A DNA stretch of 63,800 bases, filler included, from Reclinomonas americana ATCC 50394 (Eukaryota), in the NCBI GenBank assembly GCA_048213135.1. It is 18 parts of 18 records of this genome, joined end to end, with 100 filler letters (N's around TTAATTAATTAA, not from the genome) between each part and the next. Parts side by side here need not be neighbours in the genome. Positions count along the whole stretch, not along the records: positions 6,425 to 13,934 come from AFZH01018016.1; 17 more parts are not named here. One strand, 5' to 3'. Under the pieces are notes generated by a model. That model ran no database searches, was not told the DNA's origin, and worked only from the letters and a program-made list of their open reading frames with translations. Shown here piece after piece: positions 6,425-15,277 of the stretch (positions are counted from its first letter, which is position 1; the number at the start of each line of letters is the position of its first letter). The translations under genes were made by a program, and so were the position numbers.

Positions 6425-7002
6425 AGGTCTTCCGGGTGCTGAAGAATGGCGGCGAGTTCCACTTCTCCGACGTGTACTGCGATCGGCGGTTGCCGGCTGC
6501 GCTGCGTACGCACCCGGTGCTGCTCGGCGAGTGTCTCGGCGGTGCGCTGTACGTGGAGGATTTCAAGCGCATTTGCGCCACGGTCGGCTTCACCGACCCG
6601 CGCGTGCTGGAGTGCACGCCGATTGAGGTGCACGACGAGGCGCTGCGTGAGCTACTCGGCCTGGCGCGCTTCTTCTCCATCACGTACCGCCTCTTCAAGC
6701 TGCCAGAGGGCGTGCTGGAGACCAAGTGCGAGGACTACGGACAGGTGGCGGTGTACAAGGGCACGCTGCCGGGTTCCGCGCACGCCTACGCCCTCGACGA
6801 TCACCACGTGTTCGAGACGAAGAAGCCGGCGCTGGTGTGCGGCAACACGGCGGCCATGCTGCAGGAGACGTGGCTCGCACCGCACTTTACGATTGTCGGC
6901 GATCGCAGCACGCACTTTGGATTGTTTGATTGCGGAGATGGTGGTGGCGTGGCCGCTGCTGGCGGATCCGAAGGCTCGTGCTCAGCAGGCGGTTGCTGCT
7001 GA
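6425..7002 (+). CDS. AS3MT: Arsenite S-adenosylmethionine methyltransferase (AS3MT/ArsM family), C-terminal part; 5' end lost in gap
   Basis: VFRVLKNGGEFHFSDVYCDRRLP...PVLLGECLGGALYVEDFKRIC...GFTDPR...FFSITYRLFKL...CEDYGQVAVYKG...VCGNTAAML...HFGLFDC, ending in GGCC*. These are the characteristic ArsM/AS3MT motifs and terminal Cys pair. Confidence 0.92.
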
Positions 7003-7221
7003 AATGGGAGAGGATGAGAAATGCAGAGGGGAAATGAGGCTTCCGTTGCTGTATCGCATGAAGAGCTTTGGTCGAACACGCAATCAATATAATCCAAAAC
7101 CGAACACAGATTGTGCAATCGCTTGCTTTCGTTGCTCATTCTCTCCGTCCCTCCGCCTTCCTCCTCCCACCCCACACCCTCACCCCCCCACAAACACTCT
7201 CACTCCCCTCCCCTTCATCAC

Positions 7222-10200
7222 ATGGCGTGCGAAGTTCACCGACTTCGCGCCCCGCCTTACTGTCCAGCGCCTGACATCACGCAGCGCACCTCCTCTCTCT
7301 TGCAGCGAATGGCACTGCACTTCTCACACACCACACTCGAGGACGTGCACCCCTCACAAGTCTTCTGGGTGACCGTCACCCCCACACTCATCGCCACCGC
7401 CTGTCGCGATGGCACACTGCGAGTGTTCGACGCACAGACTCTCGCCTGCGTGAGCGCACACGAGGGCGCCCACGAAGGCGGCTGTGTCCGCGTCCTCTTC
7501 TCTCCACCAAGACCTCAGCAGCAGCTTCTGTTGGTGAGCACAGGCCTAGGCGCTCCCTCGCCCACGGTGCGCATGTGGGAGGTGTCGGCCTCGGGTGCCG
7601 ACCTCACACCACTGTGGACCGGCGAAGGGCACTCGGCAAGCATCTGCAGCGTGTGCATGACTCGCGACATGCGTTCGGTGTTTACGGGCTCACGGGACAC
7701 CACCATTCGCCAGTGGGAGGCAACGTCGGGCACCTGCGTGCGCGTTCTGCGCGGGCATTCGTCGTATGTGCGCGGATTGGCGCTGTTTGGCGGTCAAACG
7801 CAGCAGTTCTTGGTCAGTGGCTCGGGCGATAAGACCATGCGGGTGTGGTTGGTGGAGAGCGGGCAGCAGGTGCGTACGCTGCGGGCGGAGACGGGCGTGA
7901 CGGCGGTGGATGTGTCGCCCGACGGGAGCACCATCATGTCGGGGCATGCGAATGGAGTGGTGTCGCTGTGGTCGTTCAAGAATGGCGTCGTCGATCGGCA
8001 GCTGCGTGGGCATGCCACGATGGTGAATTCGTGTGTGTTTGCGCCTGAGGGGACGTTGGTGTTGTCGGCGGCGCATGGTGAGAGAAGGGAAAGGGGCGAA
8101 AGGGGAAAGGGAAAGGGGAAGCGGGTGCGAGAGACTTGAGAATTATGTACGCTGCTGCCTTGGATGGTGCAGTAACAGAGTTGGTTTGTGTCGTTGAGAA
8201 GAGAATTCACGGGGCTGAAGAGAGTGACTCTGTGTTGTGAGCATGGAGCATGTGCTGCTCCGCAGAAGTAGGAGAGACGAAGACAGTGAGTACTCTTTGT
8301 ACGGTTACCAGTTTGCTGCTGTTGCGAGGCAGATGCGTGAGACAGAGTTACTGAGTGTCCTTGGTGGCGGAGAGTCAGAAAAGGAATCTGCGCTCTGCAG
8401 TAGATAGTGCTTCTGTCAAGAGAATGCGGCGGGTGAGCAGTGTGCTTTCACAGGGAAGACCTCTGTGAGTCAATGTGTCTGTTCGAGAGATGCACATCGT
8501 GTCTCGGATGTTGTGTGCTCAGTACTCTGTTTTGTGCGAGAGTCGTCGGGAATTGTGCGCTCGTGAGTCGTCAGAGAAGATGTCGCTGTGCTGTGGCCGA
8601 TAGGAAGTGTTGGATTCCAGCCGAGAGTGGCAGTGAGCTGTTGAGGGGTTCGATAACATGGTGTGTACGACTTGAGCGAGGGTAGATAAGCACCTCGAAC
8701 ACGACGAGAACGGCAATCTTTCGCATATACTCTCTCACTTCTCAAATCTTTCGCTCGCCCACTCTCTTCTCTTTGTCGACCGAAAGGTGTCAGTGAGAAT
8801 GGCACTCATACGCTCAGCTTCTCCTTTTCGAGTGAGCGCACGAATGAGCTGAGACAGCGAGCTGTGTGGGGGCAAAAGCTGCTGAGAAACTCAACTCATT
8901 CTGCAGTGAGTGAATCGATTCGTCTGTGATGGCGCTCTGCCATATAGTTTCGCTCTGTTCAGCAGCACATTACCTTTCGACAGAGATAGGCGTCAACTAC
9001 TGTGTGGTCACATTTACTGACAAGAGCAACTCTCATTCTCTATTTCCAAAGCGAGTGAGTTTGTCGGTGCGAGTGCCATGGCACTCCTTCGGCCAGCTTT
9101 CGTTCTTTTTCTTATCACTTTCTCTTTCGACTGGGTTGAAGACACACAAGCAGTGAGTGTGCGTAGACATGCAACTCTGTGTTTATTCTTTCATTCGACT
9201 GAGTGAGGCATCAACTATTGTGTGGTCACAATCTACTGACAAGAGCAACTCTCATTCTCTATTTCAGAAGTAAGTGAGTTGTTCTCTGAGAGTGCCATGG
9301 CAATCCTTCGGTTCTTTATCTTATCACTTTCTCTTTACAAGCATGTGTGTGCATAGCAACGCAACTCTTGTTTATTCTTCCATTCGACTGAGTTGAGACA
9401 TCAAGCTGTGTTCGGACAATGCTGCACTGTTCTGCAGCTCTTCTTGTGTGTTTCCGCTGTGAGTGAGTAAGTGCTTGTGCATTGGCATTCTGCCACAAAG
9501 TTTCGCTCTGTTCGCTATCGCTTTCCTTTCGTCTGCGTTGAAGACTCACGCAGTGTGTGCAGAGGAAACGCAGCTCTTTGTTTATTATTCAGTTTAGTGT
9601 TCAGGCTGTTTGGGCAATGCTGCATCTGTTTCTGCAGTGAGTGAGAAAGTGTGTATGTTGGTGTGCACAAGGGCGCTCTTTCACCCACCTTTCTCACCGT
9701 GCCCCCTTTTCACATTCCCTTGCGTCTCAACATGACACCCTATTCCATCAGTCTCCTCATTCTCTTTTCTTCTCCCCTTCCCCGTCCTGCTCCCCTTCTC
9801 GCAGACAAAACGGTGCGCCTGTGGAACGCCGCCACGCGAGAAAACGTGGCCACACTTGAAGGCCACGGCTTGTGCGTCTGGTGCGCCGCCATTATGCCCA
9901 ACGGGCAGTTTGTGAGCGCATCCGAGGACAAATCCGTAATGATCTGGCGTCCAGGTACGCATGCCCCTCACCACCTTGTCACCCTATTGTTGCTCACTTC
10001 TTCTCTCGCAGATCTTCCTGGGGCGGCTCCGCTGCCGGCGCCACCCATCCGCAACTCCATTGTGCGACCACCCATCGTGCCTGAACGCAACCCCACTCCA
10101 CCCCTCGTCGTACCTGCAGCAGCAGCAGCAGCAGCTGCACCACCTCCTCCAGCAGCACCTGTTCAGGCTCCCGTTCCCGTTCCGGCAGCCGGCAGCGCAG

Positions 10201-13105
10201 TTGCTTCATCGGCCGCAGCCGTGATTCCTCATGCGGGCGGCGCCGCGGCTGCCGGTGCCTCTGCCGTCCTCTCTGCTGCGGCCGCTGGTGGACACGCCGA
10301 CTCGGCGGCACGCACGCAGGAGGTCCATGCCCTGCGCACCCAACTGCAACAGGCCGAGGCCGCACACGCCGAGACTCGTCGCGCACTGGAAGGAGAGCTG
10401 ACGGCGCTGCGCGCGCAGCTGGCCGAGACCGAAGCGGTTCGCTTGGCGGCCGAGGAGCGAGCCACCGACGCTGAGGAGCGAGCGACGGCCGCCGAGGAGG
10501 AAGCGGAGCGGCTCCGTGAGCGCATGACAGACAGCGAGGAGGTGGTGGCAGCCCTGCAGACGCAACTCAACAGCGTAGAGAACGAGTTGAGAACGGAGCG
10601 GCAGCGTGTCGCCGAGAAGGACGAGGAGTTGGCGCGGTTGCGACATGTGGCGCCAGGTTTGCGTGTCGGCAGAGTCGTGTGAGTGGGAGTGTTGCTCATC
10701 TCTCTTTCTCTCCCTCTTTGCAGTGCACGCTGCAGTGGTGGAGGCACAGGGCGTGCGCGCCTATCCGTGGCAATTGTTGGAGCAGGCCACGGACAACTGG
10801 TCACAGCGGTACTTGGTCGGCGAGGGTGCGCATGGTCGAGTGTACCTCGTGCTGCTGGAGAATCAGGAGGTCGCCATCAAGATGCTGACGGCGGACACGG
10901 ATGTGCGACAGGAGGCGTTTGAGCGGGAGGTAAGCATGCTTGGGTGGGTGCGATAAAGTGGAAGTATGTGCTGATGTGTTTCAATAGGTGGAGATGCTGA
11001 GCCGTCTGCGCCACCGTCGTCTTGTTCCTCTGCTGGGTCACTCGAGTTCTGTCGGCGGCTCAAACCAGAGATGCCTGGTCTACAGGGCAATGGAGTTGCG
11101 CTATTGCTCATGTTCCTTTCGTGAAGCTCTCTCTCTCTCTCTCTCTGGTTGCAACTTCAGCTACACGTTGTACTCGTCTCTGGGAGTGACGACAGCCTGC
11201 TCTTCTTCAGCACTTGCATCTGTCTTCGTCGTCTCTGTCTCTGCCCTTTCTTCCATTCCATCAGGGCTACCGCTACGCATTACATGCGTCGTTGGGAGCA
11301 GTGACGGCCTGTTTTCTGTTGTGTCCCTTCTTCTCCAGCACTTGAAGGTGACCGCCCTTTCCCCTTTCTCTCAGCACTTCGTCCAATGTGATTCACGCCA
11401 CTACACGTCGTACGTGTCGTTGGAAGAATCTACGGCCTGCATCGCCTGTCTCTCTTCGAGTCGTTTTGTACTTCCCTACTTGCACCTCTCCTCTCCTCAT
11501 CCAATCATTCCCGTTCTTCGCTCTCATTTCGTGACTCACCCCCACCTCACAGGCGCGACAACCTCGAGATGCGACTCATGATCTCCAACTCGGTGACACC
11601 GCCACTCACGTACACGCAGCGCATGCAGATCGCGCTCGGCATCATTGAGGGCCTGGTATTTTTGCATGCGGTGAGAGCGTTGCGATGTAACAGTCACTCG
11701 TCATGCTCGCTCACCACCTTTCGTGTATGTGCCGCAGAACAATGTCGTGCACTGCGACCTGAAACCGGCCAACGTGTTGTTGGATCACCGACTGGAACCA
11801 TGTCTGGCCGACTTTGGCATTGCCAAGAGCCTCGGTGCTGACCAGGTGCGTGCGCGCGTATTCTCTCTTTCAAGTCTCTCCCCGTCTCACACACGCCGAC
11901 ACACAGGCCGCGATGACCATGGGCGGCTCACGGTACTACGTGGACCCGCTGTCGCTGGCCACGGGCGAGTCGGGCTCGGAGGTCGACATGTACGCGTTTG
12001 GCGTGATTATTGTGCAGCTGCTGACGCGCAAGGCGGCCAAGGATGCGGTGCAGTTGGCGCTGCGCGTGCAGCGCACACCCGAGGCGGTGGATGCGGTGGC
12101 CGAGGCAGACCGCACTGCCGGGTTGTGGCCGGATGTGGTGGCGCGGAGGTTGCTGGATGTGGCGGCGTCGTTGCGTCAACAGGGGGAGATGGAGGGGAAG
12201 GGAGGAGAGGAGAAGGGGGTAAAGGGGAAGAGAGGATAGAGGAAAGAGAGGGAGGAGGAAAGAAGGAACTTGAGCGCGAAACGGGAGGAGAGAATGAGAG
12301 TAAGAGAGGAAAGAGAGAAAGTTGACGAGAATTCGGGTTGATGAGTGTGGATGCAAATTCGAGAAGAAAAGAAAAAGGAATGAAAAGGGGAGAAGAGTAA
12401 GCGGGGAAAAATGAGGGCAGAGTAAGAGAGGAAAGAGGGCCGGGAATGGTGACGAGAAATCAGGATGTCGAGTGCGAATACGCATAGGTGCAGAAGAGGA
12501 AACGGAATGAGAAGTGAGGGGAAGTGTCGTCGGGATAGAGAGGCGCAGGCGAAGAGAGGGAAGAGTAAGGGAGGAAGACAGACAGGGAAGTTGACGAGAA
12601 ATCGGTGCGGATGCTGACTGGTGAAGAAGAGGAAAACGGAAGGAGAGGAGAGGAGAAGCGTGAGCAGGGGATAGAGAGACGAGGCGAAGGGAGTGAAGGA
12701 ATGAGAGGCAGGAATGGTGACGAGAAATCGGGGTCTGATGGTGAATACAAACAGGAGAAGAATAACAAAGGGAATGAGAAGGGAGAAGAGAAACGTGAGA
12801 AAAGTAGGGCAGAGTACGAGTGGACAGTTGGAGGAAAGACAAGAGGTCGGGTTATGAAGAACAGCAAAGGGAATGAGAAGGGAGGAGAAGAGTAACCTGG
12901 GAAGAGTAAGAGAGGGAAAGAGAGAGACAGGGTGGAGAGACGGAAAGGGGAAGAAGATGTTCGCATCCTTGATCGAATTGCTCACGATCTACCCCACCAC
13001 AGATGCACAGCACTCTCGCAAGCACGACCGACGGCCGTCGAAGTGGAGGCCACCATCCGCCAGCTGAGAGAGGTGTGCGGCGGTTTTACAATGGAGCTGT
13101 TTTAA
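7222..13105 (+). CDS. WD40-repeat / Pro-Ala linker / coiled-coil / IRAK-Pelle-RLK-type Ser/Thr kinase fusion
   Basis: Exon 1 (ATG 7222 or 7309, to 8077) has GH...WD-type repeats. A phase-1 intron 8078-9804 joins SAAH/DKTVRLWN. Then come a Pro/Ala linker, an E/R/A coiled coil and the kinase: YPWQLLEQATDNW, VGEGAHGRVY, VAIK, RLRHRRLVPLLG, LVYRAME, RMQIALGIIEGLVFLH, HCDLKPANVLLD, ADFG, DMYAFGV, SCTALSQARPT. TAA at 13103-13105. Confidence 0.8.
8985..9420. repeat. Diverged ~220-bp tandem duplication inside kinase intron 1
   Basis: TCAACTAxTGTGTGGTCACA..TACTGACAAGAGCAACTCTCATTCTCTATTTC...GAGTGCCATGGCAxTCCTTCGG occurs at ~8993 and ~9210. Confidence 0.85.
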
Positions 13106-13150
13106 GAGCGGACGAGTACGGTGTACGAATAAAAAAATCGTCTCTATTTT

Positions 13151-15277
13151 TCATTTGCCCATGACCACTGCGGGTGGCGGCGGCGGCGGTGCCGGTACCG
13201 ACGAGCCGTGGTTTGTCGCACGATGCAAGTACGCCACGTACCGATCGTGGTCGAGGCGAATCTGTCGCTCGTTCAGCACCTGTCGCTCGAACACGCCATC
13301 TTGCACGTAGAGGATGCGGTCGGCGTAGCACTCGACGTCGGGATTGTGCGTCACCATGATCATGGTGGTGCGCTGCAGCTGGTTGATCTCCAGCAGCAGA
13401 TCCATGATTTCGATGGTGTTCCGGGTGTCGAGGTCGCCGGTGGGTTCGTCTGGAATGAGGAGTGGTGAGGAGGAGATGCAAGGGAGGGAAGAGAGGAAAG
13501 GGTGGACGCACCAAGGAGCAGCAGCTCTGGTTCGTTGGCCAGTGCGCGAGCGATAGTCACGCGTTGTTGTTCGCCGCCACTCAGCTCCGACGGGAGGTGC
13601 TTCATGCGGTCCTGCAGGCCGACCACTGAGGGGGGAGAGAGGGGAAGGGAGGGAGAAATGAGGGCGAGACTCTTATGCATCGTTTCCCCTTCAACGCAAC
13701 TGGTCAACAACTGCTTGGCCCGCTCGCGTGAGTCCCTCGCTGATCGCTTGCCAAGCAGCGTCATCGGCAACTCGACATTCTCCACCGCCGAGAGCGTCGG
13801 CAGCAGGTTGAACGTCTGGAACACGAAGCCGATTTTCGAGAGGCGCAGATCCGACAGGAAGTCGTCGGTGGTTTGCGCGGTGATGGTGGAGCCGAGGATC
13901 TCTGTGGGATGAATGAGAAGGGGAAGGGGGTGGTNNNNNNNNNNNNNNNNNNNNNNNNNNNNNNNNNNNNNNNNNNNNTTAATTAATTAANNNNNNNNNN
14001 NNNNNNNNNNNNNNNNNNNNNNNNNNNNNNNNNNAGAGCAAAGCAGAATGAGCAGCCGGTGGACGACGAAAAAGGAAAGACGACATCAGAGTCCTCAAAT
14101 GCGGAATGTGCGTCCGGAGGTCGATGTGCGGGGAACAAAGAGGCAACAGAAAGCTCTCTCTTGAAGCAGGAAGAACAGACCTTGCTTGATGCACGAAGGA
14201 TGAGACAAATGACAGACTGAGCATTGTTCTCACTGCAAGAGCTTGACGCAGAAAGAGCGGCACACGATGACCAGCAAGTGACACTCACTGCAGAAAGAAA
14301 GCAGATTGAGATGCCCGTGGCAGATGCGCGACGACAACCAGCTATGTAATACGTTGGAGCAAAAAGAGCAGCCCGTGCGAGAGCAAAAGACGACCAGCAA
14401 GAAGCAGAATGGATTGGCGAAAGCTTGAGGCAGAGAGAGCTGGCCTTGAGCGAGTAAAGGAGAGCACAAGACACAGGGACAGCAACAGCAACCCCTGGTT
14501 GATGAAAGGATGCAGCACAGGAGCCTGAAGCAGAAAGTAAAGATCTCGAGTGCTAAAGAACTGAGCACAATCTCAGTGCTCCTCTCTTGTCGTGCAGCCA
14601 CGCAACGAAGAGTGCCCGATGACTGCCGATCAATGGTTCCGATAATGTTGAGCAGGGTGGTCTTGCCGCCGCCGGAGGGTCCGCGAATCATCACAAACTC
14701 GCCTCGTCGCACCGACTCGAATCCATTGCTGCTGCTCAGCTCGGCGTCGTCCAGGCAAATGTCTTCCAGGGCGTGCACGGTGTCTTCGCGGCCTTGGATG
14801 GTGTATTCTGGGGAGAGGGAAGGGTGAGAGGGGAAGGGGTGGGAGAGGGAAGGGAAGGGAGGAGAAGGGAAGGAGTGAGAGAGGGAGGGAGCGAGAAGGA
14901 AAGGAGAGGAAGAAGGGAAGGACGAGAGAGAGTGGGGAAGGGAAGGGTGGGAGAGTGGGGAAGGGAAGGGCGAGAGAGTGGGGAAGGGAAGGGCGAGAGA
15001 GTGGGGAAGGGAAGGAGTGAGAGAGGGAGAAGGGAAGGGAGAGAGAGAGAGAGAGAGAGAGAGAGGTAGGGGAAGGGAGGTGGAGTGAGTGATGAGTAGG
15101 AAGGACGAAGGGTGGCGACCGTAAAGGTGTTCGAGGTGACGACTCGAGGCGCTGCATGCGAGCCAGACACTGAATGANNNNNNNNNNNNNNNNNNNNNNN
15201 NNNNNNNNNNNNNNNNNNNNNTTAATTAATTAANNNNNNNNNNNNNNNNNNNNNNNNNNNNNNNNNNNNNNNNNNNN

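Follow-up and report, generated by a model that had tools for sequence, protein, structure and literature searches.

The window, that is, the whole stretch of Reclinomonas americana DNA that was analysed (63,800 nt), contains at positions 6425–13934 a piece of contig G000:C2549; the sequence past the N spacers belongs to other contigs. Translation of 7222–13105 on the plus strand showed nine exons with GT-AG introns that join into a single 851-codon frame with one terminal stop. The gene is real, and the splicing of its nine exons is predicted from genome sequence alone. The frame encodes WD40 repeats (to aa 335), a Pro/Ala linker (aa 336–435), a coiled coil (aa 436–548) and a kinase (aa 551–851), and Pfam showed WD40 in exons 1 and 2 and parts of the kinase in exons 4, 7 and 8. 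The original prediction had these four parts spliced in phase, which the continuous frame and the GT-AG introns throughout support, and the motifs it named (YPWQLLEQATDNW, HCDLKPAN and YYVDPL) were all present in the gene. Directly upstream on the same strand (6425–7002) is the last exon of an arsenite methyltransferase gene (PDB 5evj, E 3e-75). On the minus strand at 13151–13934 translation indicated the 3' exons of an ABC transporter ATPase-like gene, convergent with the kinase gene.

Exon 1 (7222–8077), read from Met30 (7309–8077), encodes WD40 blades 1–5 and half of blade 6, and exon 2 (9805–9954) the remainder of blade 6 and blade 7 (Pfam WD40, 41.8 bits). Between them lies intron 1 (8078–9804), which is 1727 nt long, has phase 1 at codon 286 and contains no open frame longer than 123 aa. 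A degenerate direct repeat of about 230 nt with 77% identity lies within this intron (8899–9327). Exon 3 (10012–10656) begins with the Pro/Ala-rich linker (10012–10310) and continues into a coiled coil of about 113 aa (10311–10656). The kinase starts in exon 4 (10724–10929) with an RLK/Pelle lead-in, the Gly loop GEGAHG, VAIK and helix C, for which the best PDB matches were plant RLCKs and IRAK1. Exon 5 (10988–11094) carries a Tyr gatekeeper (CLVY, codon at 11081), exon 6 (11553–11670) kinase helices D–E, and exon 7 (11738–11845) the catalytic loop HCDLKPAN (11750) and DFG (Pfam Pkinase, 35.4 bits). By sequence and Pfam, exon 8 (11907–12169) holds the activation segment ending in YYVDPL and helices F–H. 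Exon 9 (13003–13105) supplies the kinase end and the stop; it lies outside the coverage of a second copy of the gene, and the last intron is the same in a paralog on contig C297. The only AATAAA in 7001–13400 is at 13128, after the final stop.

The 5' end is less certain. The stretch 7222–7308 is probably not all coding, because the second copy is one base shorter within a pyrimidine tract whose end is an acceptor-like GCAG at 7305; the stretch may instead hold an upstream ATG and a probable small intron ending at 7305. Codons 1–29 are in doubt, and translation can safely be taken to begin at the Met at 7309 (822 aa), whether or not a short exon lies upstream.

The second copy, on contig G000:C8352, kept all covered splice sites and was free of indels over codons 31–817. 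The introns of the two copies, intron 1 included, showed many indels, and a deletion of about 200 nt in the second copy falls at the repeat region of intron 1 (8899–9327). The copies differ by about 57 silent versus 10 replacement changes (dS 0.099, dN 0.006, dN/dS 0.058). C8352 is probably the other haplotype, because the upstream arsenite methyltransferase exon is shared too.

Intron 1 is unusually long for this genome, in which 3 of 284 sampled introns exceeded 1 kb, and its length would suit a WD40 gene next to a separate coiled coil–kinase gene, or an assembly chimera. We consider both highly improbable. The long intron sits inside the propeller and not between WD40 and kinase, and the intron between WD40 and linker is only 57 nt. 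Spliced alignment showed a phase-1 intron at codon 286 in 10 of 13 other WD40 stretches tested, which represent six paralogous loci, with lengths mostly of 60–69 nt; among these, C3663 and C4078 have the same WD40–kinase layout as this gene with an intron of 63–66 nt at that codon. The single AATAAA and the agreement of contigs C2549 and C8352 also speak against these readings. The shared intron, the half-finished propeller of exon 1 and the second copy thus uphold the proposal that the WD40 and kinase parts form one gene.

AlphaFold2 with an 18-row alignment folded exon 1 into 22 strands, corresponding to five and a half blades (pLDDT 92, pTM 0.90); from the single sequence the fold was poor (pLDDT 47). 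The model ends in the middle of blade 6, and exon 2 appears to supply the motifs that complete blades 6 and 7. The blades showed a mean mutual identity of 24%, versus 75% for the 12 repeats of a NACHT-WD40 gene from the same genome. The propeller was 31–39% identical to related propellers, and Foldseek returned generic propellers with 17–32% identity. In a WD40 protein search, the gene's own protein was absent among the 120 matches listed, which were generic WD40 proteins with 28–39% identity. Pfam showed no NACHT domain in the scanned exons and one in another gene of the genome. A large set of NACHT-WD40 and stand-alone WD40 genes with highly similar repeats was observed on L067 (G000:C6966) and many other contigs (4552 first-look candidates). 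Three loci (L064/L065, L062/L063 and L074/L075) showed the same propeller type and intron without a kinase, and end in a short tail with LVLRCF, which may resemble a BC/SOCS box.

In the coiled coil, 69% of the heptad a/d positions are hydrophobic. A two-copy model predicted an in-register homodimer with a score of 0.54, compared to 0.00 for the best of three controls, which were unrelated proteins and not coiled coils; the runs showed contact agreement of at least 97% and pLDDT of at least 88. Among microbial proteins, 21 of 30 solved pairs and 0 of 23 single chains attained the score mark, and among eukaryotic ones 17 of 29 and 0 of 30; of the eukaryotic pairs that lack an older solved relative, only 1 of 7 did. 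Passes may come from the method's memory, and solved coiled-coil dimers are common. The model is therefore support, not proof, that the coiled coil likely dimerises, in agreement with the oligomerising role first proposed for it. The highest 19-residue hydropathy mean was 1.38, which indicates no transmembrane segment and matches the soluble protein that had been predicted.

The kinase keeps the Gly loop, the VAIK Lys, the helix C Glu, the catalytic Asp, the Asn and DFG. Its frame ends about 12 residues past the last kinase helix and has no C-terminal U-box. A Tyr gatekeeper was present in 87 of 89 sequences of the family to which it belongs in this genome. Profiles built from this gene and its paralogs were compared with the PDB. 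RLK/RLCK/IRAK kinases made up the top 47 of the 60 sequences listed for the C-lobe and all 59 of those listed for the N-lobe, including a few entries named only "Protein kinase" or "Hypothetical protein" that we presumed, some of them from sibling entries, to be of this class.

We built an IQ-TREE phylogeny of 39 rows, after 33 of 72 candidate rows were dropped as redundant, long or partial. The in-genome family formed one clade (100/100), nested in a clade (98/90) with plant RLK/Pelle kinases and one Plasmodium TKL, apart from six bacterial kinases and one oomycete kinase that forms a long branch. Together with the PDB ranking, this tree, which contains no IRAK, Raf, MLK or LRRK sequences, supports the proposed assignment, and the kinase is likely of RLK/Pelle type. 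RLCK-IX U-box kinases scored best to the family profile (194–198 bits), with a negligible margin over a CRK kinase (193), and a joint clade of the family with RLCK-IX is neither supported nor rejected (p-AU 0.178). Word-seeded searches with the C-lobe and N-lobe and a HMMER scan of representatives yielded plant RLKs along with kinases from bacteria, one from an oomycete and two from Plasmodium, but no close protist relative, although the absence in the HMMER scan carries little weight, as the scan was dominated by multi-kinase proteins and its profile included one plant row. This gene showed a long terminal branch (0.72), and its nearest relative, C297/C821 (91/87 support), has an HRD catalytic loop.

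The family itself is large. Exon 7 matched at least 150 places in the genome (313 candidates, 150 scored), many of them in tandem at about 4 kb spacing, and exon 8 matched 103 places. We modelled 89 near-complete kinases, which fell into 78 clusters at 97.5% identity in a sample biased towards the relatives of this gene; four kinase introns are common to nearly all members. The heads in front of the kinase were ankyrin (55), divergent WD40 (7), repetitive WD40 (5), TPR (2), USP7 (1), UEV (1), a second kinase (1), LRR-like (1), unidentified (2) and not seen (3). WD40 precedes the kinase at about 10–11 loci, a count left approximate because two WD40 clusters are probably haplotypes and the WD40 of C252 is split from its kinase by a gap. 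In the tree the divergent-WD40 members branch deepest and the ankyrin members form two shallower expansions. This gene is thus an old, single-locus, deep-branching member of the family.

Several loci were recorded beside these counts. The WD40 part of C297 (L069, G000:C297:78000-83000) is inverted around an N gap, probably through a scaffolding error. At L151 (G000:C12:245000-254999) a TKL-like kinase is followed by a coiled coil and a Pelle-type kinase. The TPR heads (Pfam) are on L122/L123 (C156, C140), and other heads precede the same kinase module at L155 (C52), L136 (C193), L183 (C465) and L124 (C7878), one of them charged and helical. By motif, the head on C193 may be LRR-like and that on C465 ArfGAP-like; Pfam gave no match for the former and did not confirm the latter. 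The assembly gave a single SSU rRNA match, which is bacterial, and a bacterial rRNA operon on L081 (G000:C1) indicates that bacterial contigs are mixed into the assembly.

The family view changes the meaning of two features of this kinase. The missing subdomain VIII Glu, singled out at first as an oddity, is a family-wide loss, with the Glu in none of the 88 parsed kinases (DPL in 75, DPM in 8, DPI in 3, DPR in 1 and DPV in 1). The HCD catalytic loop, with an uncharged residue before the catalytic Asp, is kept in both copies of the gene. Across the 78 kinase clusters the loop was HRD in 75, HCD in 2 and degenerate in 1. The second HCD member has an ankyrin head (L102, G000:C8257); the trees favour a separate origin of the two HCD kinases, and their joint clade is not rejected (p-AU 0.09). 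A pattern search of the genome showed 29 HCD sites, comprising the two copies of this gene, the ankyrin member on C8257, 24 in DYRK-like or other unrelated kinases or by chance, and 2 that stayed without assignment. The Cys-for-Arg substitution is real, but it is no mark of the expanded, fast-changing members. The original reading of it as the sign of a receptor class is not supported in this family, as 75 of 78 clusters, the nearest relative included, are HRD. A survey cited in the accessible text of PMC8872720 counts 12 of 15 immune kinases as non-RD, yet the same text gives 9–29% of kinomes as non-RD, and the HCD motif alone is therefore weak evidence. A further expanded kinase family (L083–L101) has HCDVKPSN and DFD in place of DFG, is partly tandem, and is unrelated to Pelle by score.

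The comparison of the two copies showed purifying selection over all four regions of the protein, with dN/dS of 0.054 for WD40, 0.040 for the kinase and 0.11 for the linker; with two copies only, a few selected surface sites could be hidden. In ankyrin paralogs (8 of 10 pairs parsable), dN/dS was 0.40–0.95 for the heads and 0.055–0.21 for the kinases, although setting an allele pair against paralog pairs is not a strict comparison. The ankyrin members that change fast have an HRD loop. Given the low dN/dS of the propeller, near that of the kinase, and the low identity among its blades, the propeller looks like the binder of a fixed partner and not a variable sensor. The suggested likeness to the sensors of fungal NLRs is not supported by the blade identity (24% against 75% in the NACHT-WD40 gene), and the suggested search for diversifying selection on the WD40 surface gave the opposite result in this two-copy comparison.

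Two paralogs carry heads of a different kind. On C102 (L153:388-6300) a copy of USP7 (Pfam UCH, ICP0-binding, C2) is continuous, within a single open frame, with the coiled coil and Pelle-type kinase. In this copy Ala replaces the catalytic Cys; the Cys is present in another USP7 gene, on C9309 (70% identical), and C13358 holds a normal USP7 3' end with a stop. On C175 (L152:340-2650) a TSG101-type UEV precedes the coiled coil and Pelle-type kinase, with a predicted 66-nt intron at the junction, and a full TSG101 on C46 is 75% identical to this UEV at the DNA level. USP7 and TSG101 are targets of animal viruses. Both fusions are read from genome sequence, on one contig each. The two heads resemble the integrated decoys proposed for cereal kinase-fusion resistance proteins, as described in the available part of PMC10260397, and chance gene fusion in a fast-duplicating family is a possible explanation as well. 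A head copied from a separate host gene was seen in the C102 and C175 paralogs and not in the WD40 gene.

On balance, we think it probable that the gene product is a soluble, likely dimeric Ser/Thr kinase of RLK/Pelle type whose seven-bladed WD40 head likely binds a fixed partner protein. Because the gene is strongly conserved and belongs to a large family whose heads are interchangeable, a relay for a fixed partner is likely, and not the sensing of variable invaders. Judged from its fold, the propeller would bind this partner, and binding would bring together or reorient two kinase domains and so switch phosphorylation on. With Cys in place of Arg, the switch may be less dependent on phosphorylation of the activation loop, a property described for non-RD kinases. 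Since the gene is old, single-locus and deep-branching, the product would most likely have a fixed role as relay or guard, and it might share a pathway with the fast-changing ankyrin members.

A cytosolic pattern-recognition receptor, in which the WD40 head binds foreign molecules directly and the non-RD kinase starts a defence response, appears unlikely to us. The enrichment of non-RD kinases among immune kinases, the large and tandem family, its fast-changing ankyrin heads and the NACHT-WD40 genes of the genome would all suit such a receptor. However, the head is conserved and single-locus and its blades lack high internal identity, the ankyrin members that do change fast are HRD, non-RD kinases are frequent in whole kinomes, and the genome has HCD in unrelated kinases too, DYRK-like ones among them. 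The propeller might alternatively copy a host WD40 protein targeted by intruders, so that its engagement fires the kinase; this integrated decoy or guard follows the model described for cereal kinase fusions in the accessible text of PMC10260397, and we hold it to be improbable for this gene. Paralogs do carry copies of host domains, in the Ala-bearing USP7 (with the Cys kept in another gene) and the TSG101 UEV, and the same propeller type occurs without a kinase at three loci. However, the propeller is only 31–39% identical to its relatives, so no recent host template is visible, and the USP7 and UEV fusions are each on one contig and their status as viral targets comes from animal systems.

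It is quite improbable that the protein is a pseudokinase or weak kinase acting as a dimeric scaffold. It lacks the RD Arg as well as the subdomain VIII Glu, its terminal branch is long, and tomato RLCK-IXb-1, a relative by score, is described in the accessible text of PMC12803775 as without detectable kinase activity in vitro. However, the Lys, helix C Glu, catalytic Asp, Asn and DFG are kept, the kinase dN/dS is 0.04, and the Glu loss is common to the whole family. A conserved, partner-operated kinase is thus our preferred reading.

Taken alone, this gene adds one new arrangement of domains to a kinase type already known, and Chara offers a parallel; the family matters more. RLK/Pelle kinases are listed for plants, green algae, a glaucophyte and animals in the accessible part of PMC10868138, and at least 150 matches with swapped heads in a protist would show independent use of RLK/Pelle as a modular receptor platform. 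It is possible, though doubtful, that the coiled coil–Pelle module and its hundreds of heads (hypervariable ankyrin and WD40, and virus-target decoys USP7 and TSG101 UEV) form a kinase-based intracellular immune system independent of plants and animals, with the non-RD WD40 member serving it as a fixed guard or helper kinase. Should the USP7 and TSG101 heads be decoys, kinase fusions with integrated decoys, which PMC10260397 in its accessible text describes as Triticeae-specific, would extend to a microbial eukaryote, and this would give testable predictions on the host proteins attacked by the viruses or endosymbionts of the protist.

The WD40–coiled coil–kinase arrangement is uncommon but not new. 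Among 126 WD40-containing proteins fetched, 34 also had a kinase, with the kinase first in 33 and WD40 first in 1. The single WD40-first case, Chara braunii GBG83112.1 (CBR_g36730), consists of WD40, a coiled coil and an RLCK-IX-like kinase. In the ESM Atlas, its first 730 residues matched two clusters, of 58 and 89 members and mainly streptophyte, in which 100% of members have a kinase and 93–95% have WD40, in a domain order that is not given. The architecture was not recognised at first, but with about 11 loci here, the Chara protein and RLCKs that carry WD40 according to the accessible text of PMC11644700, it has company. A literature search by title returned none on protist WD40–coiled coil–Pelle kinases, and some phrase queries probably missed "RLK/Pelle". 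The Chara protein shares the N-terminal propeller, the coiled coil and the RLK/Pelle kinase with a Tyr gatekeeper, but it is only 23% identical, has three kinase domains in its annotated model and has HCA in the catalytic loop. Its kinases group with RLCK-IX (94/86) and are not sister to the protist family, and the shared layout is probably convergent.

Plant RLCK-IXb and PUB-VI U-box kinases are likewise soluble with a coiled coil directly before the kinase, but they keep the subdomain VIII Glu and have a U-box. Animal IRAK1/IRAK4 and Pelle are also cytosolic, and IRAKs were among the top PDB matches for both lobes. IRAK4 has a Tyr gatekeeper, and IRAK/Pelle kinases are activated by oligomerisation. 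However, these kinases, left out of our trees, have a death-domain head in place of WD40 and the coiled coil. Fungal HNWD/NWD NLRs (HET-E type) similarly use WD40 repeats as a putative binding module, whereas this gene has no NACHT, low internal repeat identity, purifying selection and an N-terminal propeller. The uncharged residue before the catalytic Asp in its HCD loop is a feature shared with the non-RD kinases XA21 and FLS2, which differ in having an extracellular ligand domain and a transmembrane helix. The cereal resistance proteins Sr43, Lr9 and Pm4 likewise fuse a kinase to varied extra domains, some of them proposed as integrated decoys in the accessible text of PMC10260397, and the protist family also includes a tandem-kinase member. 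The cereal proteins, described as Triticeae-specific, differ in having genetic proof of resistance.
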